This document shows positions 7,821 through 64,000 of a stretch of DNA of 64,000 nt, piece by piece; the stretch's first letter is position 1; every line of letters begins with the position of its first letter. Both the position numbers and the translations under genes were made by a program. The notes beneath the pieces are model-generated. The model made no database searches, was not told where the DNA came from, and saw nothing but the letters and a program-made list of their open reading frames with translations. Source of the stretch: Candidatus Desantisbacteria bacterium CG1_02_49_89 (GTDB lineage Bacteria > Desantisbacteria > UBA1551). Location: NCBI GenBank assembly GCA_001871075.1, contig MNUP01000033.1, positions 437 to 64,436 of the forward strand, read 5' to 3'.

Positions 7821-8041
7821 ATGGCCTCTTTAATAAATAGATTAAATATATAATATAAAACCTGAAAATAGAGAATTGAAAATTGACCACAATCTCGCAA
7901 TCTCCTTTATCTATTGCTCTATTTTCTATTGCTCCAGTTTTCCGCAGTGCATATCAAAAAGACAGAAAATAGAAAATTGAGCAATAGACCGTCCGCCAAT
8001 CATGCTGGGCGGACTCTGATTTTTCGCAGAGCGAAAAATCT

Positions 8042-8210: not shown

Positions 8211-8289
8211 TTTTAATACAGTTAAAAGTTGCCCGCCCCGACAACCATCGGGGCGAGGTCTCGCCCTGATTGAAATCAGGGCGGAAAAG
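8211..8289. repeat. Twin-hairpin element, copy A (CCCCGACAACCATCGGGG + CGCCCTGATTGAAATCAGGGCG)
   Basis: About 95% identical to 58728-58805. A diverged relative lies at 8623-8690. Confidence 0.5.
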
Positions 8290-38650: not shown

Positions 38651-38707
38651 CACCTCGGCTAATAATCTATTGCTCTATTTTCTATTGCTCTGCTTGAAGG
38701 GGTTTAT

Positions 38708-43801: not shown

Positions 43802-45035
43802 CTTCGGCTGTTTTTAATATTATCCCGGCCAGCCTTGCGGCTGCACCGCCCTCTCCCATTACTTCCTTTAACCTGGCAGACATACCGGCCCTGAGCTCAC
43901 TGTTCCTGATCAATTCCGATGCCTTCTCCAGCACCATACCAGGATCTACAAAATCCTTTATTTCGGGCACGACTTCCTGTCCGGCTTTCTGATTTGGTAT
44001 GGCGGTATATTTCAGCCGCATGCCGAAATCCAGCACGAGTTTTTTCTTAAGGATCCTGCCTATCAGGGGTATATACTGGACGTATCCTGCGATCCCATCA
44101 AGCGGTATTTCTTCGGGTTTGTTTAAAGGCACCACTACGATCATGGGGCAGCCTGCTGCCGCGATCTGCGCCGTATTTGTGCCCGGTATGGTCAATATAA
44201 GGTCGCAGGCGTTCATTACGTCATACGGCATTTCCTGGGCCCGGATGACCCTTGTTCCGTCTTCCGTTGTTATCAGGCCGTCCGCGAATTCCGCTTTTAT
44301 CCCTTCAAGCGCGCCGTTCTGTCCCCCGGCCTTAACGGCTTCTGACAGCTGGCTGTCAGTTACAAAGGAAGCGCGGCTCAGGACAAACCTGCTTTCCGGG
44401 AATTTTCCGCGGATCAGGCTGCAGCATTTAAGAAAAAAAGATGTCATGTGTTTTATCTGGTAAGGCCTGCTTCCCGGAAATATCCCTACCAGGATCTCGT
44501 TTTTTGCAGCACCGCACCTGCTTCTTGATTCTTCTCTGGAAAGACCGGGTTTCACGGCTTCAACGAAAAGATCTCCCGCAATTTCTATCTTTCCCGCATC
44601 AATACCCTTTTCAGAAAGCCTCTTTTTGCTGTTTTCGTCAGTGACAATGAATTTTCTAAAAAACGCGTTATAGAACCTGCCGGCGTCATGGGTGTATGCC
44701 ACGGCCGGGTAACCGAGGCGCCCGGAGATCAGGACCGAGTGCATGTAATCGCTTCCGAGGTGGACAAGAACGCCCTTCTTTGCGAACCCGCCCTTTACCC
44801 CTTTGTTAAGGAAAAGGAATTTTAGGTATTCACCCGGGCTGAAGACATGATCGACCCCGGGAATATTTTTCGCTATCTCTGTTTCTGTCCCGCTCGCATA
44901 CTGGCAATACGGTATAAATATAATTATCCTGTCACGTTCGACGTCCGACGTTCGACGTTCGACGATTTCTTTAACAACAGGCGTCACCCACCCTTTGATC
45001 TCGCCGGGGCTGTTCGTCACGATCACTATATCCAT
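43794..45035 (-). CDS. Lipid-A-disaccharide synthase (LpxB)-like glycosyltransferase (GT19-like)
   Basis: N-terminal IVTNSPGEIKGW resembles the LpxB GE.SGD motif. 413 aa. It contains the in-frame heptamer array (CGTTCGA)x4. The family call is uncertain. Confidence 0.45.
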   Translation of the reverse strand: MDIVIVTNSPGEIKGWVTPVVKEIVERRTSDVERDRIIIFIPYCQYASGTETEIAKNIPGVDHVFSPGEYLKFLFLNKGVKGGFAKKGVLVHLGSDYMHSVLISGRLGYPAVAYTHDAGRFYNAFFRKFIVTDENSKKRLSEKGIDAGKIEIAGDLFVEAVKPGLSREESRSRCGAAKNEILVGIFPGSRPYQIKHMTSFFLKCCSLIRGKFPESRFVLSRASFVTDSQLSEAVKAGGQNGALEGIKAEFADGLITTEDGTRVIRAQEMPYDVMNACDLILTIPGTNTAQIAAAGCPMIVVVPLNKPEEIPLDGIAGYVQYIPLIGRILKKKLVLDFGMRLKYTAIPNQKAGQEVVPEIKDFVDPGMVLEKASELIRNSELRAGMSARLKEVMGEGGAAARLAGIILKTAEGV

Positions 45036-45040
45036 TTTAG

Positions 45041-45071
<31 letters not shown>

Positions 45072-45140
45072 GTTAGATTATAATTATTTCATAATTTCTA
45101 TTTCTAACAAACTATAAAACGAACCAACTAACAAACTCTA

Positions 45141-53332: not shown

Positions 53333-53587
53333 TTAATATAGTCAGATATATAAATAGAATTGAGAATTTAAAAACGGGTCGGCTTCGAACCATATTTAAA
53401 AGCTGAAAATGGATAATAGAGCAATAGACCATCCCGATGTAACATCGGGACTCTATTTTTTCGCTCTGCGAATGCTCAATACTGAGAATGGAAAATAGAG
53501 CAATAGACCGCAATTTCGCAATTCCTTTCTCTATTTTCTATTGTTCTATTGCTCCATTGCTCTATTTTTTCGCTCTGCGAAAAAATG

Positions 53588-53800: not shown

Positions 53801-54029
53801 AATCTTCGCCAGAACCGGGTGAAGTCTCAGATTCACCCGGAGCCGGGGAATTTTGCTGACGCCCCGATGGTAGTCATCGGGGCTTTACCAGTGGCGCAAA
53901 ATTCCTTTCAAGTCTTTGTCAAAACTTGAAAATGGAAAATTGAACAATAGACCGCAATCTCCTTAAGTATTTATCTATTGCTCTATTCTCTATTTTCGAT
54001 TGCTCCGATTTTTCGCCTCGCGAAAAATC

Positions 54030-55111: not shown

Positions 55112-55236
55112 TTCGCCTCCAGCTTTCTAATACAGTAACAAGTAACAAGTGACAAGTAACAAGTTTACAGCTTTTAACTGGATACTGGTCGCCACTACGG
55201 TCACCACTTCGGCGACCTGCCGACGCGGCATGGCGA

Positions 55237-55332: not shown

Positions 55333-56982
55333 TTATTCGTAGGGCACGACTGCGGGTTCGCCGGTTTTTGAGGACTTTTCCGCGGCTTCTATCACCCCTA
55401 TGACCCTGCGCGCCTTTTCTGCAGTTATCTCAAGTTTTTCACCGAGCATCAAATGATCGGCAACGTTAACATAATACTCGTTCCAGAAAGAAGGTTTGTA
55501 CTTAATATCGGATTCAGAGCGAACTCCCTGGATCAACGAGCTCATATGGAAGGAACCCTTGCCCCATTCATCTGTTATTCCGCCTGTTTCTCCCAGTATC
55601 CTCCATCTTGGCTTGCCTATCGCGGCAATACTTGAAACCTGGATATCGGCATACGCGCCGTTCTCAAACCTGATAATGGCCTGCGTCTGGTCCTCGACGG
55701 TAACCGAGTGCCATACCCTCTTATGGAAAAATCCGGTTACGTTTTTTATCCCGGATGGTATCAAACCAAGGGTCCAAAATATAAGGTGGGCCCCCCAGTC
55801 ATAAAGAGCGCCTCCCGAGATCTTCTTGTCGGACCTCCACCAGTATCCCGGATGCCCGTAGCCGCCTATGAATATTTCCGTGTGGAAAATATTTCCGATC
55901 ATGCCTTTTTTCACCACTTCTTCTATTGCGAGGAAATCCCCGTCCCATCTCCTGTTGTGGAAAACTGACAGCATAACTCCGTTCTTTTTTGCCGCCCTTA
56001 TCATTTCCGTTGCTTCTTTTGTCGTCAGGCACATTGGTTTTTCAAGAACAACGCTCTTACCCGCGGCCAGGCAGTCCATTGCTATCGGGGCATGAGTATT
56101 ATGGGGCGTAATCACGCTGACCAGCCCTATTTCCTTATTCTTAAGCATTTTTTTGTAATCGGTATACGTGGTTATTGCGGGGAAATCTTTCTTTACCGCC
56201 TCCATTCTTCTGGCATTCAAATCGCACGCGCCAATGCCTTTTATCCCGGCTGCGTTCATCATATCAAGATGCGCCTTGCCCATATTGAATGCCCCGCCGT
56301 ATCCTATAACCGCCCCGCTGACCGTTTTATCCTCCCTGAAACCGGTTACAAAACGCGCGGCCCTTCCGACTATTTTCCGGAACGACGGATGCAGAAGCGC
56401 TGCGCCATCGTGGCCCAGGGCAACATAACAAACCTTCCCCTTTCCGCATTCTTTTATATAAACCATTGGCTGGGATTTCCCCTGCCAGAACGCAGTTGCC
56501 AGGATATGGACCGCCGGGTCATGATCAACAAAATACAACTCGTCTGAAACGCTGAAATCCTGGAGCCTTTTTGTCACAAGGCTGTCTCGGTCTGCGATAT
56601 TTACCTGAAACTCCTGGTAAGGCGCGTGGCCTTTGAATTCGCATCCGAGCATAGCCAGGTAATTCTTATTGCCTTTAAAGATTGAAGCGCAGTGGATTCC
56701 TACAAACCCGCCGCCCTTTTTAACGAAAGACATTAATAAGGATTCCTGCTCCGCTGTTAATTTACCCCGGCTGTATCCTTCCACCGGACCGTGCGCGTAG
56801 AAAATACACGCTTTAAAGGATCCCAGTTTTTCCGGAGTAATCGCGTCCATCCGCTCAACCAGCTCTGCGTCAAATCCCTCATCCTCTTTCAGGATATCCC
56901 TCAGGATAACTCCGGTTTTATGAAAATCGTGGCTCCTGGCATCCCCTTCAGCCACGATCAATATCCTTCCCCCTTCTGTCAT
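55333..56982 (-). CDS. ThuA-like (class-I glutamine-amidotransferase-like) domain fused to a Gfo/Idh/MocA oxidoreductase
   Basis: N-terminal ThuA pattern (ILIVAEGDARSHDF...). C-terminal GYGGAFNMGKAH Rossmann region + EKP. Confidence 0.75.
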   Translation of the reverse strand: MTEGGRILIVAEGDARSHDFHKTGVILRDILKEDEGFDAELVERMDAITPEKLGSFKACIFYAHGPVEGYSRGKLTAEQESLLMSFVKKGGGFVGIHCASIFKGNKNYLAMLGCEFKGHAPYQEFQVNIADRDSLVTKRLQDFSVSDELYFVDHDPAVHILATAFWQGKSQPMVYIKECGKGKVCYVALGHDGAALLHPSFRKIVGRAARFVTGFREDKTVSGAVIGYGGAFNMGKAHLDMMNAAGIKGIGACDLNARRMEAVKKDFPAITTYTDYKKMLKNKEIGLVSVITPHNTHAPIAMDCLAAGKSVVLEKPMCLTTKEATEMIRAAKKNGVMLSVFHNRRWDGDFLAIEEVVKKGMIGNIFHTEIFIGGYGHPGYWWRSDKKISGGALYDWGAHLIFWTLGLIPSGIKNVTGFFHKRVWHSVTVEDQTQAIIRFENGAYADIQVSSIAAIGKPRWRILGETGGITDEWGKGSFHMSSLIQGVRSESDIKYKPSFWNEYYVNVADHLMLGEKLEITAEKARRVIGVIEAAEKSSKTGEPAVVPYE

Positions 56983-57596
56983 TTATGCTCCTTTTTTGGT
57001 TCGTGCAGCCTTTCCATGTATTCTCCCGTGTGCGTGTCCACTATCACGGTTTCTCCGGAACTCAGGAATTGCGGCACTAATATTTCGGTTTTATTTTCCA
57101 GGACCGCCGGTTTCATCACGTTACCCGAAGCGTTTGTCACTGAAGGCAGCGTGCTTATTATTTTCATCTGAATGGTTGGAGGCATTTCCACACCCATCAT
57201 TTCGTCCTTGAAATAAAGCGCGTCAACCTCCATGTCAGGTTTTAAGAACAAAGCCCCCTTGCCAAGCTGTCCTTTTGTGACGCTTAACTGCTCGTAAGTT
57301 TCCTTATCCATGAAAACATATTTTTCCCCGTCCGCGTAAAGGAACTGATTTTTTCTGCGGTCGATCTCGACGTCATTAAATTTGTCCGTTGGTTTGAAGG
57401 TGTGCTCCGTGATATTTCCTGTCCTGACGTTCCTCAATTTTACCTTTGTTATGACTCCGGCTTTTGGCCCAGAAGTCTGCTGCTGGATCCAGATTATTGA
57501 GTAGATCGCTCCCTCGAGTTCAAGAACAAGGCCTTTCCTGAGCTGAGACGTCGTAACCATTGCACACCCCCCTTTAAAAACGGTGTCAAGCGGCAA
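56979..57596 (-). CDS. efp: Elongation factor P
   Basis: KGLVLELEGAIYSIIWIQQQTSGPKAGVITKVKLRNVRTG, with the KOW-like domain plus two OB domains. The true start is probably Met at about 57560. Confidence 0.85.
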   Translation of the reverse strand: MPLDTVFKGGCAMVTTSQLRKGLVLELEGAIYSIIWIQQQTSGPKAGVITKVKLRNVRTGNITEHTFKPTDKFNDVEIDRRKNQFLYADGEKYVFMDKETYEQLSVTKGQLGKGALFLKPDMEVDALYFKDEMMGVEMPPTIQMKIISTLPSVTNASGNVMKPAVLENKTEILVPQFLSSGETVIVDTHTGEYMERLHEPKKEHK

Positions 57597-57820
57597 GTGT
57601 CAGAATGTCAGAGCAGAATTATGGCTCTTTGACTTATATCTTCAATACTTTTTAATCAAGCCGCGTTTTCCTTTCTATATTTTCAATTGCTCTGTTTTCA
57701 GCTCTGCGAAATAAAATCTGAAAATGGAAAATAGAGCAATAGACCGAAATGTCGCTTCTTTTTTCTCTATTTTCTATTGTTCTATTGCTCCATTGCTCTG
57801 ATTTTCCCTGCGGGAAAATC

Positions 57821-58727: not shown

Positions 58728-58805
58728 GTCTAAACAGTTAAAAGTTGCCCGCCCCGATAGCCATCGGGGCGAGGTCTCGCCCTGATTGAAATCAGGGCGG
58801 AAAAG
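58728..58805. repeat. Twin-hairpin element, copy B
   Basis: CGTCTAAACAGTTAAAAGTTGCCCGCCCCGATAGCCATCGGGGCGAGGTCTCGCCCTGATTGAAATCAGGGCGGAAAAG, as at 8211-8289. Confidence 0.5.
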
Positions 58806-59408: not shown

Positions 59409-59515
59409 ATTTAATTATGAATTATGAATGCTGAGTTATGAATCAACGGCAAGGATTTCAATTTAAATTAAATTCCTTGACTCATAATTCATAACTCATA
59501 ACTCATAATTTACTG

Positions 59516-60244
59516 TTATTTCCCAACAATTTCACCGAGTATTGATCTCTGGATCTCGATAATTTCCTTTATGCCCTTTTCTCCGAGTAAGGTAAGCTTG
59601 TCCATTTGTTCTCTGCTGAATGGTTTTCCCTCGGCAGTGCCCTGTATCTCTACGATAGTGCCGGCTCCGGTCATGACAAGGTTCATATCCACTTCCGCCT
59701 TTGAATCTTCCTCGTATGAAAGGTCAAGCATCAGCGTTCCGCTGACTATCCCAATGCTGATACCTGCTACAAAATCCCGCACAGGCCAGCTTGAAAGCAT
59801 CTGGCTTTTTTTCAGATAGGAAAAAGCGTCGCAGAGAGCTATGAACGCTCCGTTTATCGAGGCGACCCTTGTTCCGCCGTCAGCCTGGATAACGTCGCAA
59901 TCTATAGTTATGGTCTTTTCTCCGAATGTTTTAAGATCGGTCACGGCCCTGAGCGACCTGCCGATAAGCCTTTGTATTTCATGGGTCCTGCCTCCTGTTC
60001 TGCCGCTGTGTCCTTCCCGGGGGATCCTTGTCGCGCTTGACCTCGGCAGCATGCCGTATTCCGCAGTGACCCAGCCCTGTCCCGAGTTCTTAAGGAAAAA
60101 AGGGACCTTTTCGTCAACCGTCGCGGTGCAGATCACCTTGGTATTCCCCGTTTCTATTAAAACCGAACCCTCAGCATATTTCATATAGGGTCTTGTGATC
60201 TTTATATTCCTCAGTTTATCGTTCATCCTTCCGTCTAAACGCAT
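59516..60244 (-). CDS. rph: Ribonuclease PH
   Basis: [41 protein letters not shown]. The conserved rph-rdgB pairing is present. Confidence 0.9.
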
Positions 60245-60422
60245 TAAACCTCCGTTTGATTTAATTATGAATTATGAATTATGAGTTATAAGTTATGAAT
60301 CAACTGCAAGGAATCAAATTGTAACTCAGGGCTTTAGCCCTGATTCATAACTTTGCCCTTCGGGCAACATTCTCGTGTGGTTTTGCAGAATGTTTTCGAA
60401 TTCCATAACTCATAATTCATAA

Positions 60423-60947
60423 TTATTTGTAGATACTTTTACCGTATGAATTAATCCCGACCAAAACAGGGAAATCTTTCAGTTCAAGCTCATATATCGC
60501 TTCCGGACCCAGATCCCTGAAAGCGATCACTTTCGCTTTTGTTATTCTGCGGGAAAGCAGTGCCCCTGTTCCGCCAACAGCCACAAAATAAACCGCGCCG
60601 GATCTTATTATGGCCTTTTTTACGTCTTCTGAACGGTTACCCTTGCCTATCATTCCTTTAATACCGAGTTTAAGCAATAGCGGAGTGTAACGGTCCATCC
60701 TGGAGCTTGTTGTCGGGCCGCACGAGCCGATCGGCATGCCTTTCGGAGCCGGTGCCGGTCCCGCGTAATATATCGTCTGTCCCTTCCAATCTATCGGCAG
60801 TTTCCAAGCTTTGAGCTTTGAGCTTTGAGCTATTCTTTTATGCGCAGCGTCCCTTGCTGTGTATACTGGTCCCGTCAGCAGAACCTTTTCGCCTGCCCTT
60901 AATTTCTTTATGTCAATATTATTTAATGGAAGTATTATTTTTTTCAT
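60423..60947 (-). CDS. Class I fumarate hydratase / tartrate dehydratase beta-type subunit (Fe-S hydro-lyase C-terminal domain)
   Basis: LTGPVYTARDAAHKRI signature. 174 aa. It contains the in-frame (AGCTTTG)x3 heptamer array. Confidence 0.8.
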   Translation of the reverse strand: MKKIILPLNNIDIKKLRAGEKVLLTGPVYTARDAAHKRIAQSSKLKAWKLPIDWKGQTIYYAGPAPAPKGMPIGSCGPTTSSRMDRYTPLLLKLGIKGMIGKGNRSEDVKKAIIRSGAVYFVAVGGTGALLSRRITKAKVIAFRDLGPEAIYELELKDFPVLVGINSYGKSIYK

Positions 60948-60982
60948 CTTTTAACTTGTTACTTGTTACTTGTTACTGGATA

Positions 60983-62527
60983 TTAAAACTCAATATGCAC
61001 TTCCATTCTGCCGCTTCCCTTATGGATAAAATCTACGTAGCTGCTTTTCTCGATCTTCTGCGTGGTAAATTGCGGGATCTTTCCCGCGCATACAACTTTC
61101 TTCGCCTTTTTACCTTCGGGGATCATCACGTGAAATTCTATCTCGCGCGTCTTGCTTCCTTCCACAACCATAGAAATTACTGAACCTTTCTGGGAATATT
61201 CGTAATTTACGGATTGTTCGGAAGCTCCGTATGCGGCGCTCACGCTTGCCTGTTCTTCTTTTACCGAGACCCACTTCGGAGAGAGCTTAATACGCTCAAA
61301 AAGGCACGACTGGTCTTTAATACCTGCCAGCCCTTCGATTATTGCTGAAATTATCGCGGCCGCCCCCCAGCCCCTCGGTCCTCCGCCCTGATCTTTTCCG
61401 TCAGGTGTATAGAGAAAATAAATGGTTCCGTCTTTTTTCCATAATGCCTGCAATCTGTCAAGTATGTCCAGCGCGTAACTTTCAAATCCGTGGTCAAGGG
61501 CTGCTTTTGCCAGCTCGCCCGCTACGAAACCCGCAGGTCCCCCGTTTATGTATTGTTCTGCTTTGTATCCGCTGAATTCCGGGTATGGCGGGTTGATGCT
61601 GAACCATTCCGCAAAATATTTTCCCTGAGTATCCTTCCGCCTCTTGATGTATTCGTTAATTATGCTCGCTGCCATTTTTTGGTCAGGCAGGCCGCGGTTA
61701 ATATCATAGGTATTGCTGAGGCTGAGTATATCTTTTTCATTAACTCCTGTATCAAGCGGCGTTCCCATATGAACCTGGTGGGTATAGTATTTGCCGTTCC
61801 AGCACACTTTGTTCGTCCTTAACTTGAAATCCTCTGCTTTTTCCTGCCAGTATTTAACCCTGTCAAAACTTGCGAACTCGGCGAACATTTTTGCCAGCAA
61901 TACGCACGCTTCGTAAATTCCGCTGTTGTCGCCGTGCATTATCGCCATGGGGGTTGAATCTTCGATCCTTCTGTTATTATTAGGCACGCCATATGTAAAA
62001 TCCCATGTGTCTATTGTGAAGGCTCTCTTGACAAGAAGGTGGCCTTTGCAGAAACGCTTCTGGTCGTTCAGGCAATATTCAATCCCTTTTTCGACCCTGT
62101 CAACCTGTTCCCTGAGCCAGTCGGTGTCTCCGGTTGCCTGCCAGGCTGAATAAACGCCTTCAGCCATAAGATATTCAACGTCTGCCTCGATTTCAAGCCG
62201 CACGTACCCAAGGCTGTTTTTCTCATCGATCTGAACGCATTCAGGCGTTACCATCCTTGTGTGGATATCGTCTTTTCCTACTATCATTTCATAGAAAAAC
62301 CCTTTGGGGGTCTGCCTTTGCAGGAAATGGTCAAGCCCTGATCTGACTTCTTTCTCCCAGTATTTGTAACCCTTCATTTCATGGACGTGGTCTCTCAGCC
62401 AGCATGGGTTCATGTTCACTGTTTTGCCGTCCACGGTAAATGACTGCCTGTCTCCAGCCACTATTTTTTTTAAACCTTCTAAAAAATCATCATACCTCTT
62501 GGTGCCTGTCGTGATCTTCGTCTCCAT
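60983..62527 (-). CDS. Hypothetical 514-aa protein (possibly an alpha/alpha-toroid, glycosidase-like fold)
   Basis: Long clean ORF between the two fumarate-hydratase subunit genes. No motif I can assign. Confidence 0.5.
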   Translation of the reverse strand: METKITTGTKRYDDFLEGLKKIVAGDRQSFTVDGKTVNMNPCWLRDHVHEMKGYKYWEKEVRSGLDHFLQRQTPKGFFYEMIVGKDDIHTRMVTPECVQIDEKNSLGYVRLEIEADVEYLMAEGVYSAWQATGDTDWLREQVDRVEKGIEYCLNDQKRFCKGHLLVKRAFTIDTWDFTYGVPNNNRRIEDSTPMAIMHGDNSGIYEACVLLAKMFAEFASFDRVKYWQEKAEDFKLRTNKVCWNGKYYTHQVHMGTPLDTGVNEKDILSLSNTYDINRGLPDQKMAASIINEYIKRRKDTQGKYFAEWFSINPPYPEFSGYKAEQYINGGPAGFVAGELAKAALDHGFESYALDILDRLQALWKKDGTIYFLYTPDGKDQGGGPRGWGAAAIISAIIEGLAGIKDQSCLFERIKLSPKWVSVKEEQASVSAAYGASEQSVNYEYSQKGSVISMVVEGSKTREIEFHVMIPEGKKAKKVVCAGKIPQFTTQKIEKSSYVDFIHKGSGRMEVHIEF

Positions 62528-62660
62528 CTGTTCTCCTTTATATGATTACACCGATTACAAAACCGATTACACCGATTTAAAAATGATTACTGTGATTTCA
62601 AAAGAGATTACGGTGTTACTGCATTCAACTTTTAACGTTTAACTTTTAACGTTTAACTGG

Positions 62661-63548
62661 CTACAACGTAGTTGTAGCCTTACGCAGAGCCCAGCAGGAT
62701 ATATTGATCGCTACAGGCAGTCCTGCTATATGGGTCGGAAAGGTTTCTATATTTACTCCGAGGGCAGTTGTCTTACCCCCGAATCCTCCCGGCCCTATCC
62801 CCAGCGCATTTATTTTTCTTAATAGTCTATTTGCTAATTCTGACACTTGACATCCGCCCCGATCAATGTCGGGGCGAGACCTCGCCCTGCCTTTGCGCAG
62901 GGCGGGCTGGACTCTTGACACTGGTTTAAGGAGTGCTTCCTTCGCAATCACCATCGCTTTCTCGGAAGTTCCGCCTATTCCCACTCCAACGATCAGAGGC
63001 GGACAGGCATTCGGACCGAATTTCTTAACCGTTTCGACTATAAAATCTTCTATTGCGCCGGATTTTTCACCGGGCAGGAACATTCTGATCGTACTTGTAT
63101 TTTCGCTTCCGAAACCCTTGGGCAGTACCGTAATTTTTATCCTGCTGCCCGGAACGACTTTTGTGTGGATCACGGCTGGAGTGTTGTCGCCTGTATTTAC
63201 GCGTTTCCCGAAAGGATCTTCCACAACCGAAGCACGCAGGCAGCCTTTTCTATACCCGGAACGCACGCCTTCCTGTATTGCTTTTTCAAGATTTCCCTTG
63301 ATATGAAGATCCTGCCCTATTTCCAAAAACACCACAGCCATCCCGGTATCCTGGCACATCGCGATGGATCCTTTTTCCGCTATCTCAATATTTTTGAGGA
63401 TTGAATCCATAGCGTATCCGGCAAGACCTTTTTCTCTTTTTGCCGCTTTCTGTATGGCTTTTTTTACATCAGGCCGTAATGTATAATTCGCCCTCATGCA
63501 CAGTTCCGCTACGGTATCGGTTATTTTAGAAGCATTTATGATTTTCAT
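62661..63548 (-). CDS. Class I fumarate hydratase alpha-type subunit (Fe-S hydro-lyase N-terminal domain)
   Basis: MKIINASKITDTVAELCMRANYTLRPDV...CQDTGMAV. The Cys ligands typical of the tartrate/fumarate hydro-lyase alpha region. Confidence 0.8.
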   Translation of the reverse strand: MKIINASKITDTVAELCMRANYTLRPDVKKAIQKAAKREKGLAGYAMDSILKNIEIAEKGSIAMCQDTGMAVVFLEIGQDLHIKGNLEKAIQEGVRSGYRKGCLRASVVEDPFGKRVNTGDNTPAVIHTKVVPGSRIKITVLPKGFGSENTSTIRMFLPGEKSGAIEDFIVETVKKFGPNACPPLIVGVGIGGTSEKAMVIAKEALLKPVSRVQPALRKGRARSRPDIDRGGCQVSELANRLLRKINALGIGPGGFGGKTTALGVNIETFPTHIAGLPVAINISCWALRKATTTL

Positions 63549-64000
63549 TTGTTTGTTTTATCTTTCAAATTTACATTTTGTCCCCGCAGGTTTCTTACCC
63601 TGTGAAATGCAAAGCATTTCCAGGACTTGAGTCCCTGAAATCGCATTCGCGATTTCTAGGGGTGAAATCTAGACGCTGGGATCCCTTAGGGACATTTTGA
63701 CTTTTGCAATGTATTTTTAAGTATATTATTTCAAGCACCCCGGCTTCCCGCCTTTCTCCCTGTGATATTTGATGCATTCGCAGCAAATACCATGCCGCTC
63801 ACAGTCAGTGTTGGTGCATGTGCAATTCTTTTCATTTTCCTTTTTATTCTGGCATTCTTTTCTCATATACTACCTCCCGTAACCACAGGTGAACACAGGT
63901 GCACACAGTAAATCAGATCTAAAGTCATTTAAGTTAATATCTGAAAATAGCATCTAACAGTGTTGACCTGTGTTAATCTGTGGTTAAAGTATCTGTATGC

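Follow-up and report, generated by a model that had tools for sequence, protein, structure and literature searches.

In a 64-kb stretch of DNA from Candidatus Desantisbacteria bacterium CG1_02_49_89 (64,000 nt; hereafter the window), the genes for the two subunits of a predicted class I fumarate hydratase (alpha and beta) are separated by a 514-aa gene of different ancestry, X. We interpret X as an ancient, lineage-specific insertion, with alpha and beta encoding an ordinary fumarase and all three genes forming one transcription unit, and place the probability of this reading at roughly 75%. As sister lineages have the subunit genes side by side, the arrangement looks like an old, tolerated insertion and not like a new three-part enzyme. 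The three reading frames are co-directional and were found exactly where the initial annotation had placed them. The features of the locus, in the direction of transcription, are as follows.

63726..63866, minus strand: small Cys-rich ORF of 46 aa (MRKECQNKKENEKNCTCTNTDCERHGICCECIKYHREKGGKPGCLK), directly upstream of alpha, read from the sequence
63549..63725, minus strand: spacer preceding alpha, structured (RNA folding energy -48.9 kcal/mol; z = -4.8 relative to shuffled sequences)
62661..63548, minus strand: alpha, predicted class I Fe-S fumarate hydratase subunit, 295 aa (PF05681, NF004885, motif)
62854..62905, minus strand: double-hairpin, GC-rich palindromic element of ~52 nt within the alpha CDS (alignment, stems)
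62528..62660, minus strand: alpha-X spacer of 133 nt; tandem 14-mer repeats, GTAATC-periodic repeats, and a Shine-Dalgarno (AAGGAG) preceding X
60983..62527, minus strand: X, 514 aa, predicted six-hairpin (alpha/alpha)6 protein, glycosidase-like and cytoplasmic, from a family not yet characterised
60948..60982, minus strand: X-beta spacer, 35 nt, with an (AGTAACA)x3.4 array
60423..60947, minus strand: beta, predicted class I Fe-S fumarate hydratase subunit, 174 aa (PF05683, TIGR00723)
60807..60831, minus strand: perfect heptamer array in the beta CDS, CAAAGCT x3.6 on the coding strand (TRF, 100% matches)
60245..60422, minus strand: beta-RNase PH spacer, highly structured (RNA fold -58.3 kcal/mol, z = -7.6)
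59516..60244, minus strand: RNase PH (PF01138 and PF03725), our synteny anchor and rate yardstick

Alpha scores well above the curated cut-offs of PF05681 (E = 5e-106; 354 bits, cut-off 25), TIGR00722 (274 bits, cut-off 100.65) and the "fumarate hydratase" equivalog NF004885 (352.8 bits, cut-off 276), and is identical to a protein listed at NCBI as fumarate hydratase of Ca. Desantisbacteria bacterium CG_4_10_14_0_8_um_filter_48_22. Beta exceeds the cut-offs of PF05683 (E = 1e-53; 181.8 bits, cut-off 22.2) and TIGR00723 (169.9 bits, cut-off 145.15). Three conserved cysteines of alpha ligate the [4Fe-4S] cluster, and these residues (Cys65, Cys182 and Cys285) are invariant in alignment A2, as are the core motifs of beta in alignment A3. 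The proximal loop of alpha reads K144-G-F-G-S148; KGXGS is the motif of fumarate hydratases at this position and AGGGC that of L-tartrate dehydratase (bioRxiv 10.1101/2023.06.17.545066). From these matches we predict that alpha and beta together form an ordinary class I ([4Fe-4S]) fumarate hydratase with two subunits, which shares with the Methanocaldococcus jannaschii enzyme and the Pelotomaculum MmcBC type both domains at scores over curated thresholds, the three cysteines and KGXGS. In most relatives beta comes right after alpha, whereas the window has an unrelated 1.5-kb gene between them. The window proteins also differ in a 16-aa palindromic-element insertion in alpha, a heptamer-encoded loop insertion in beta, and a beta score below the cut-off of the narrower equivalog NF005310 (218.3 bits vs 238). 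L(+)-tartrate dehydratase TtdAB, a homologue that is likewise a two-subunit Fe-S hydro-lyase encoded by neighbouring alpha and beta genes, was considered and rejected: it has AGGGC where the window alpha has KGFGS, and the scores are far too low for TtdA (alpha against NF006084, 156.8 bits vs 365) and TtdB (beta against NF006082, 83.1 vs 264). We also rejected relaxed constraint or pseudogenisation of alpha and beta following the insertion. Both subunits keep intact catalytic motifs, and the ratio of alpha divergence to RNase PH divergence, taken from identity matrices, is ~1.5-2.0 in X-carrying and X-lacking comparisons alike.

X is recognisable by profile and structure methods only, plain sequence annotation being uninformative: it has no match in NCBIfam, none in Pfam even at E<=0.1, and none among PDB sequences by phmmer. 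Its structure model shows a confident (alpha/alpha)6 barrel catalytic domain and a C-terminal beta-sandwich. Both parts are common to the six-hairpin glycosidases and phosphorylases (GH100 invertase, GH94 phosphorylases, GH116, GH63 including YgjK and mannosylglycerate hydrolase-like enzymes, GH133, GH15, GH37 trehalase and GH78 rhamnosidase), and at the level of the fold, the (alpha/alpha)6 barrel, the modelled X agrees with that superfamily. Identity to any solved structure is just 10-15%, the best PDB profile matches (E = 3e-4 and 7e-4) span 45-90 residues, and X reaches the threshold of none of the curated families GH37, GH63/MGH-like, GH78, GH94 and GH116. Relatives of X give weak Pfam matches, the best to PF22422 (E = 3e-9) and others at 1e-6 to 1e-7. 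In a profile alignment the invariant D176 of X (in DTWDF) is paired with the WDF segment of periplasmic trehalase, which holds the general acid of that family, and many acidic residues of X are invariant. The initial annotation had called X a gene of unknown function; the confident model permits assignment to a type, with X predicted to be a functional enzyme of the cytoplasm that belongs to the six-hairpin glycosidase superfamily. It is unrelated to fumarase and probably acts on glycosides as an inverting hydrolase or phosphorylase. The X family comprises ~680 clusters and has neither a Pfam model nor a solved structure.

The order alpha-X-beta recurs in three lineages, represented by the window and L004, by L094 (X 96% identical) and by L001-3/L088 (X 76%). 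Five further Desantisbacteria-type lineages have the same neighbourhood without X (MnmE-PfkB-HEAT-(small ORF)-alpha-beta-RNase PH-Ham1), with alpha-beta gaps of 76 nt (L096/L097), 4 nt (L099), 16 nt (L100/L101), 2 nt (L102) and 16 nt (P0243); the alpha of L096 clusters with that of Ca. Desantisbacteria CG1_02_38_46. RNase PH lies downstream of beta in all Desantisbacteria-type loci examined. These empty sites, with the subunit genes 2-76 nt apart, bear out the earlier proposal of an insertion into a once contiguous operon. The initial annotation had named, as a finding that would count against its reading, relatives with the same three-gene order around a characterised middle gene: the order is there, but in none of them is the middle gene characterised. 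The further claim that alpha and beta are normally adjacent holds in part. Beta follows alpha within 3-210 nt at 57 of 80 loci from other genomes, and at the other 23 no beta lies within ~6 kb. An alpha scan of species-representative genomes gave no close relative (best 55% identity) and was used as an outgroup survey only. Ten downstream ORFs sampled from these 23 loci include no fumarase beta, nine being unrelated or without a Pfam family. A divergent beta was likewise rejected there, as six of the seven beta-sized ORFs examined are HPF or YgjV and one has no Pfam match. Our literature search found no account of unlinked fumarase subunit genes (MJ1294/MJ0617) and none of a Desantisbacteria fumarase.

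The initial annotation had also suggested that X could be a functionally linked third component. Such a component would either supply or consume a fumarase substrate, for instance by cleaving a C4-acid or hydroxy-acid glycoside, or bind the alpha/beta enzyme, and the gene order would be under selection. The wider distribution of X speaks against this. Homologues at 62% identity or less are never adjacent to fumarase genes, nor are X-family members outside the clade ever near them; those at 45-62% identity neighbour CBM9-like, GH2, GFO-oxidoreductase or unrelated genes. No X-like gene lies close to alpha at any of the 80 loci surveyed in other genomes. The five sister lineages keep alpha and beta in the same neighbourhood without X, and the relative rate of alpha and beta is equal with and without it. 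The whole 64-kb window, moreover, is a single co-directional gene array in which unrelated housekeeping genes adjoin. On the other side, the three-gene order has been kept in three lineages despite substantial divergence, X is constrained like its housekeeping neighbours, and the beta loop insertion occurs solely in X-carrying lineages. Additionally, the commonest weak Pfam match in the X family is a mannosylglycerate-hydrolase-like domain, and known members of that group release an organic acid. X is retained exactly between alpha and beta over ~25-40% protein-level divergence, which a functional link would predict as well. Overall we judge a linked third component unlikely. The more specific version makes X a genuine accessory partner to the Fe-S fumarase that, for example, cleaves (hydrolytically or with phosphate) a malate or hydroxy-acid compatible-solute glycoside whose product feeds alpha/beta, with the beta loop co-adapted to X or contacting it. 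It strikes us as very doubtful; if true, the locus would represent a new catabolic module and offer a first substrate clue for the X glycosidase family.

Comparison with its neighbours marks X as old. Strong purifying selection acts on it (dN/dS 0.039, compared with 0.054 for RNase PH), its divergence from L001 resembles that of neighbouring genes (dN 0.145 for X and 0.167 for RNase PH) and its GC content matches theirs; recent horizontal transfer of X was rejected on this agreement in divergence and GC content. X is the sole gene between alpha and beta, the locus has no transposase, integrase or recombinase gene, and no terminal inverted repeats or clear target duplication flank X. The two spacers on either side of X share a short GTTAAAAG string, which is unconvincing as a target-site duplication.

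Gene trees do not group the X-carrying lineages cleanly, so with a single insertion either X was lost later or the long branch of the window lineage misleads the trees. In the neighbour-joining tree of alpha and beta, the X-carrying L001 joins L096/L099, which lack X (93.5% bootstrap), and the window pairs with L100/L102, which lack it too (72%); these groupings require losses if X was gained once. This raises the alternative that alpha-X-beta is ancestral for this Desantisbacteria group and that X was precisely deleted more than once, the empty sites being secondary. The divergence between the window and L001 copies of X, as deep as that of neighbouring genes, is in keeping with such a history. 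The trees were built on 241-680 columns with the window on a long branch, and their topologies are conflicting and weakly supported; the RNase PH tree, which pairs the window with L001 at just 48%, is together with the common beta loop insertion compatible with an X-carrying clade. Moreover, alpha and beta are contiguous in all the outgroup phyla (Omnitrophota L052, Planctomycetota L068/L080, and Clostridia), so this alternative, too, requires an insertion at some time. We consider repeated loss possible though improbable. A chimera of unrelated fragments, arising in assembly or binning, was weighed solely because the DNA comes from a metagenome-assembled genome, and nothing was found in its favour. 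Composition is continuous over the junctions, and independent assemblies (L004, L088 and L094 from JGI; L001-L003 from ENA/Logan) agree on the arrangement at three levels of divergence, and we give a chimera practically no credence.

Alpha, X and beta are probably co-transcribed, judging from their layout. We found no minus-strand terminator-like sites between them, the spacers are 133 and 35 nt (alpha-X and X-beta) in the window and 49 and 23 nt in L001, and X has its own strong Shine-Dalgarno. The alpha-X spacer has no significant RNA fold (z = -0.15), and a regulatory RNA there was rejected, the sole Rfam match (preQ1-II, 24 bits vs a gathering score of 47) being at chance level. The structured spacer at 63549..63725 is a possible 5' boundary of the unit, and a weak sigma-70-like match lies at 63568-63541. 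The spacer at 60245..60422, whose outer stem is formed by complementary heptamer arrays, is the likely 3' boundary; a sister structured element occupies the RNase PH-Ham1 spacer (59409-59515, z = -8.75). Copies of the small Cys-rich ORF (72-80% identity) precede alpha in L001-3/L088, L100/L101 and L102, a set that includes X-carrying and X-lacking lineages; it was not found in L096/L099 or in other phyla, and a Pfam search gave no match.

For the insertion itself we envisage the following history. X would have lodged between alpha and beta in the ancestor of one Desantisbacteria sub-lineage and been inherited vertically afterwards, with the three genes presumably transcribed as one unit between the structured palindromic spacers. 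Its arrival would merely have swapped the tight alpha-beta coupling of the sister lineages for independent translation initiation. The fumarase would still be assembled from separately made subunits, and X would perform a carbohydrate-related job of its own.

The repeats that the initial annotation had seen at both junctions are present in TRF output, as arrays at 62627 to ~62657/62658 (7/14-nt unit) and 62544-62611 (GATTAC-containing 9/21-nt unit) in the alpha-X spacer and at 60954-60977 (ACTTGTT x3.4) in the X-beta spacer. As marks of the junctions they fail, since such arrays are spread throughout the window: we count 61 merged arrays of period 6-14, compared with 12-18 in order-2 Markov simulations, 43 of them in non-coding DNA, which makes up ~15% of the window. 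The heptamer of the X-beta spacer itself recurs at 55134-55164. Short tandem arrays in spacers are a genome-wide intergenic repeat phenomenon and nothing specific to X.

More curious than the insertion of X are the repeats inserted in frame within alpha and beta. The palindromic element in alpha, built on two perfect 8-bp stems, amounts in the protein alignment to a net in-frame insertion of 16 aa (48 nt) that is found in the window only and is absent in all relatives; the same element also occurs between genes at 58750-58771 and 8234-8255. In beta, the heptamer array encodes a loop insertion at residues ~40-50 (AQSSKLKAWK) that is confined to the three X-containing lineages in alignment A3 and is encoded in L094 by another heptamer, TGCAAAA. 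This loop could be a marker of shared ancestry or a hint of co-adaptation. Rickettsia palindromic elements are in-frame palindromic insertions in coding genes, and cyanobacterial STRR are heptanucleotide repeats. The window resembles the former in the repeated in-frame palindrome of alpha and the latter in its abundant intergenic tandem heptamers. It is set apart from them by the many different units of its arrays, which occasionally lie inside coding sequence, and shows no sequence relationship to either.

For fumarase biology the insertion has little impact. It shows that the subunit genes tolerate separation, something already evident from the 23 of 80 other genomes in which beta does not adjoin alpha. 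As a gene that entered a two-gene enzyme operon and was stably kept there, X makes the locus a clean, datable case. X represents a sizeable and strongly conserved family that, lacking both a model and a structure, merits biochemical characterisation. The genome appears unusually repeat-active within a barely studied candidate phylum, carrying in-frame heptamers and a palindromic element in genes for an essential enzyme. Close relatives with different heptamers at the same codon position may provide a tractable case of repeat-driven protein-loop evolution.

The three open reading frames that the initial annotation placed here were all found at exactly the positions it gave:

62661-63548, minus strand, alpha subunit gene of a two-subunit class I Fe-S fumarate hydratase (295 aa)
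60983-62527, minus strand, intervening ORF, here called X (514 aa)
60423-60947, minus strand, beta subunit gene (174 aa)

Alpha contains PF05681 (E=5e-106) and, at 352.8 bits, clears the cut-off of 276 set for NF004885, the NCBIfam equivalog for fumarate hydratase; beta contains PF05683 (E=1e-53) and passes TIGR00723 (169.9 bits, cut-off 145), missing the narrower NF005310 (218 versus a cut-off of 238). Cys 65, 182 and 285 are invariant in the alpha alignment, as are the core motifs of beta in its own. The proximal-loop motif is KGXGS in class I fumarate hydratases and AGGGC in L-tartrate dehydratase (bioRxiv 10.1101/2023.06.17.545066, preprint), and the loop of the window alpha, K144-G-F-G-S148, is of the KGXGS form. 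Scores of both subunits against the TtdA and TtdB equivalogs fall far under the cut-offs. Judged from sequence, the pair is an ordinary fumarase. Alpha and ThrRS of the window are 100% identical to NCBI proteins of Candidatus Desantisbacteria bacterium CG_4_10_14_0_8_um_filter_48_22.

The gene order alpha-X-beta-RNase PH-Ham1-EF-P-ThuA/GFO recurs in the relatives L001-L003 and L088, whose X is 76-77% identical to that of the window, and the short contig L094 carries X-beta-RNase PH with X 96% identical; a further contig, L004, has the sequence of the window itself. A survey for empty sites, taking in alpha proteins that scored above general background, returned five lineages (L096/L097, L099, L100/L101, L102 and the P0243 locus) in which alpha and beta are contiguous, separated by 2-76 nt and followed by RNase PH, without X. 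These lineages share the upstream genes with the window (MnmE, PfkB, a HEAT-repeat protein and a small ORF), and the L096-type alpha groups with Ca. Desantisbacteria CG1_02_38_46. As outgroups, 80 alpha loci were taken from species-representative genomes, chiefly of Clostridia but also of Omnitrophota and Planctomycetota. X was present in none; beta lies directly 3' of alpha in 57 and is missing within ~6 kb in 23, including L012, L015 and L017. Nine of ten downstream ORFs sampled in the latter encode HPF, YgjV or other proteins that are unrelated or lack an assignment, and no fumarase beta was detected by Pfam among those sampled. Given these 23 loci, unlinked subunit genes are fairly common. 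Because the outgroups are otherwise contiguous, X must at some point have been inserted between an adjacent alpha and beta; the initial annotation had offered such an insertion as one of two readings, and the five X-lacking neighbourhoods also bear it out. Its other reading, a functionally linked third component, draws on the conserved position of X between alpha and beta. Nothing besides that position spoke for it, and we regard a functional link to the fumarase as very unlikely. More distant X homologues (45-62% identity) neighbour CBM9-like giant proteins, GH2, GFO oxidoreductases or unrelated genes, and no fumarase genes were found beside them.

The insertion is not young. Identity between the window and L001 is 78.5% for RNase PH, 76% for X, 69% for both EF-P and MFS, 68% for ThuA-GFO, 67% for Ham1, 63% for beta and 57% for alpha, with dN values of 0.145 (X), 0.167 (RNase PH), 0.246 (beta) and 0.316 (alpha). 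In the comparison with L094, a close relative, X has a dN/dS of 0.039, RNase PH one of 0.054 and beta one of 0.142, the last falling to 0.071 when the first 55 codons are left out. X is thus a functional gene, resident since the window and L001 lineages separated, and no recent acquisition. GC content is continuous across the locus. Across the group, RNase PH evolves more slowly than alpha and beta, which diverge ~1.5-2.0 times as much with or without X, so constraint on the fumarase was not visibly altered by the insertion.

Neighbour-joining trees disagree on its history. With alpha+beta, X-bearing L001 joins X-lacking L096/L099 (93.5%) and the window joins X-lacking L100/L102 (72%); with RNase PH alone, the window and L001 pair at a support of only 48%. 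Beta carries an inserted loop following the AHKR motif in the window, L094 and L001 and in none of the X-lacking lineages, a rare character that supports a putative clade of X-bearing lineages. The insertion may also have been followed by losses in some lineages.

X was described initially as a gene of unknown function. It indeed has no match in Pfam or NCBIfam, nor in the PDB by sequence, and a fold can now be assigned. AlphaFold2, run on an alignment of 36 homologues (~57 invariant positions, many acidic or aromatic), returned a confident model (pLDDT 95.6, pTM 0.95) comprising, from N to C terminus, a short beta region, an (alpha/alpha)6 barrel and a beta-sandwich. The best Foldseek matches in the PDB were GH78 rhamnosidases (E=1.7e-14, TM 0.66), followed by GH94 phosphorylases, GH133, GH100 and GH63, at only 10-15% identity. 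PF22422 (MGH1-like) is matched weakly by 33 of the 36 family members, some of which match trehalase, GH94, GH116 or rhamnosidase models, and a profile search of PDB sequences (E=7e-4) set the DTWDF segment of X opposite the WDF segment of periplasmic trehalase. An exhaustive search yielded 683 cluster representatives (50% identity) at E<=1e-3 and 208 at E<=1e-30, many relatives having extra N-terminal domains of 250-300 aa. Since X also lacks a hydrophobic N-terminal segment, it is predicted to be cytoplasmic and to belong to an uncharacterised family of six-hairpin glycosidase-like proteins; the model establishes fold membership, and the assignment stops at that level.

Spacers of 133 nt (alpha-X) and 35 nt (X-beta) separate the genes, against only 49 and 23 nt in L001. 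No terminator-like site was found on the minus strand between alpha, X and beta; the alpha-X spacer is unstructured (RNA fold z -0.15) and closes with AAGGAG, 7 nt 5' of the X start codon. The spacers 5' of alpha (z -4.8) and 3' of beta (z -7.6) are strongly structured. The simplest reading, which we infer, is that alpha, X and beta would be transcribed as a single unit. The beta-RNase PH (60245-60422) and RNase PH-Ham1 (59409-59515) spacers form long hairpins (z -7.6 and -8.75) in which complementary heptamer arrays, UUAUGAA / UUCAUAA, make up the outer stems. Since they also share an inner segment, ..UUCCUUGC.GUUGAUUCAUAAC.., the two appear to be copies of a single intergenic palindrome.

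In the 64-kb window, every one of the ~36 gene-like ORFs of at least 250 aa is encoded on the minus strand, as are the ten tRNA genes, and GC skew is negative throughout 54-64 kb. Beta is followed by RNase PH, Ham1/RdgB, three tRNAs, EF-P and a ThuA-GFO fusion, and the locus is best described as housekeeping genes arrayed in one direction rather than a cluster devoted to one pathway. The fusion (ThuA with a GFO/IDH/MocA oxidoreductase, 549 aa, 55333-56982, minus) overlaps the EF-P gene (56979-57596, minus) by 4 nt at its stop codon, a pairing kept in L001. Immediately 5' of alpha lies a 46-aa ORF with eight Cys (63726-63866, minus). Several Desantisbacteria-type lineages, both X-bearing and X-lacking, have it at 72-80% conservation; it belongs to no Pfam family, and no copy was found beside alpha in other phyla. 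In L098 (5001-6263), a 420-aa alpha homologue with beta adjacent has a ~140-residue internal tandem duplication (RIVEGDRVKITVAPKGFGSEN...NTYPT repeated), either real or an assembly artefact.

Repeat arrays had been noted at both junctions. By TRF, each of the two internal spacers does contain tandem repeats, as part of a genome-wide feature not specific to the junctions: the window holds 61 arrays versus 12-18 expected from Markov simulations (about 4-5x), 43 of them in non-coding DNA. The short arrays have 7-8-nt units in 3-5 copies, with many different unit sequences (for example 2376-2406, 44934-44964, 437-465, 45040-45137 and 55134-55164). They may be comparable to the STRR heptanucleotide repeats of cyanobacteria. 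The equivalent L001 spacers have none, and neither a transposase, an integrase nor a convincing target duplication was found flanking X. The junction arrays are uninformative on how X arrived. Five of the ten tRNA genes have octamer arrays (unit TCTATTGC/CTCTATTG) no more than ~110 nt away (7910-7934, 38666-38691, 53529-53566, 53974-54005 and 57765-57799).

A few perfect heptamer arrays also occur within long ORFs. In beta, CAAAGCT x3.6 (coding strand, 60807-60831) encodes the loop insertion; in L094, related at 96%, this loop (~788-822) carries another heptamer, TGCAAAA x~4, and divergence between the two betas is concentrated around it. The L001 insertion there is 18 aa, and that of X-lacking lineages zero. 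A ~52-nt GC-rich double-hairpin palindromic element, CCGCCCTG..CAGGGCGAG..CTCGCCCCGA..TCGGGGCGG, has three copies in the window: two intergenic and nearly identical (58750-58800 and 8225-8280), and one in-frame in the alpha coding sequence (62854-62905), which has an imperfect direct repeat of 11 nt on either side (TGTCAAGAGTC / TGTCAAGTGTC) and adds a net 16 residues seen in none of the relatives.

Overall, we read the locus as an ancient, lineage-specific insertion, real but ordinary, by which some Desantisbacteria have an unrelated, functional gene for a glycosidase-like protein between alpha and beta. More unusual than this insertion are the repeats inserted in-frame into both subunit genes and the fast-changing heptamer arrays.
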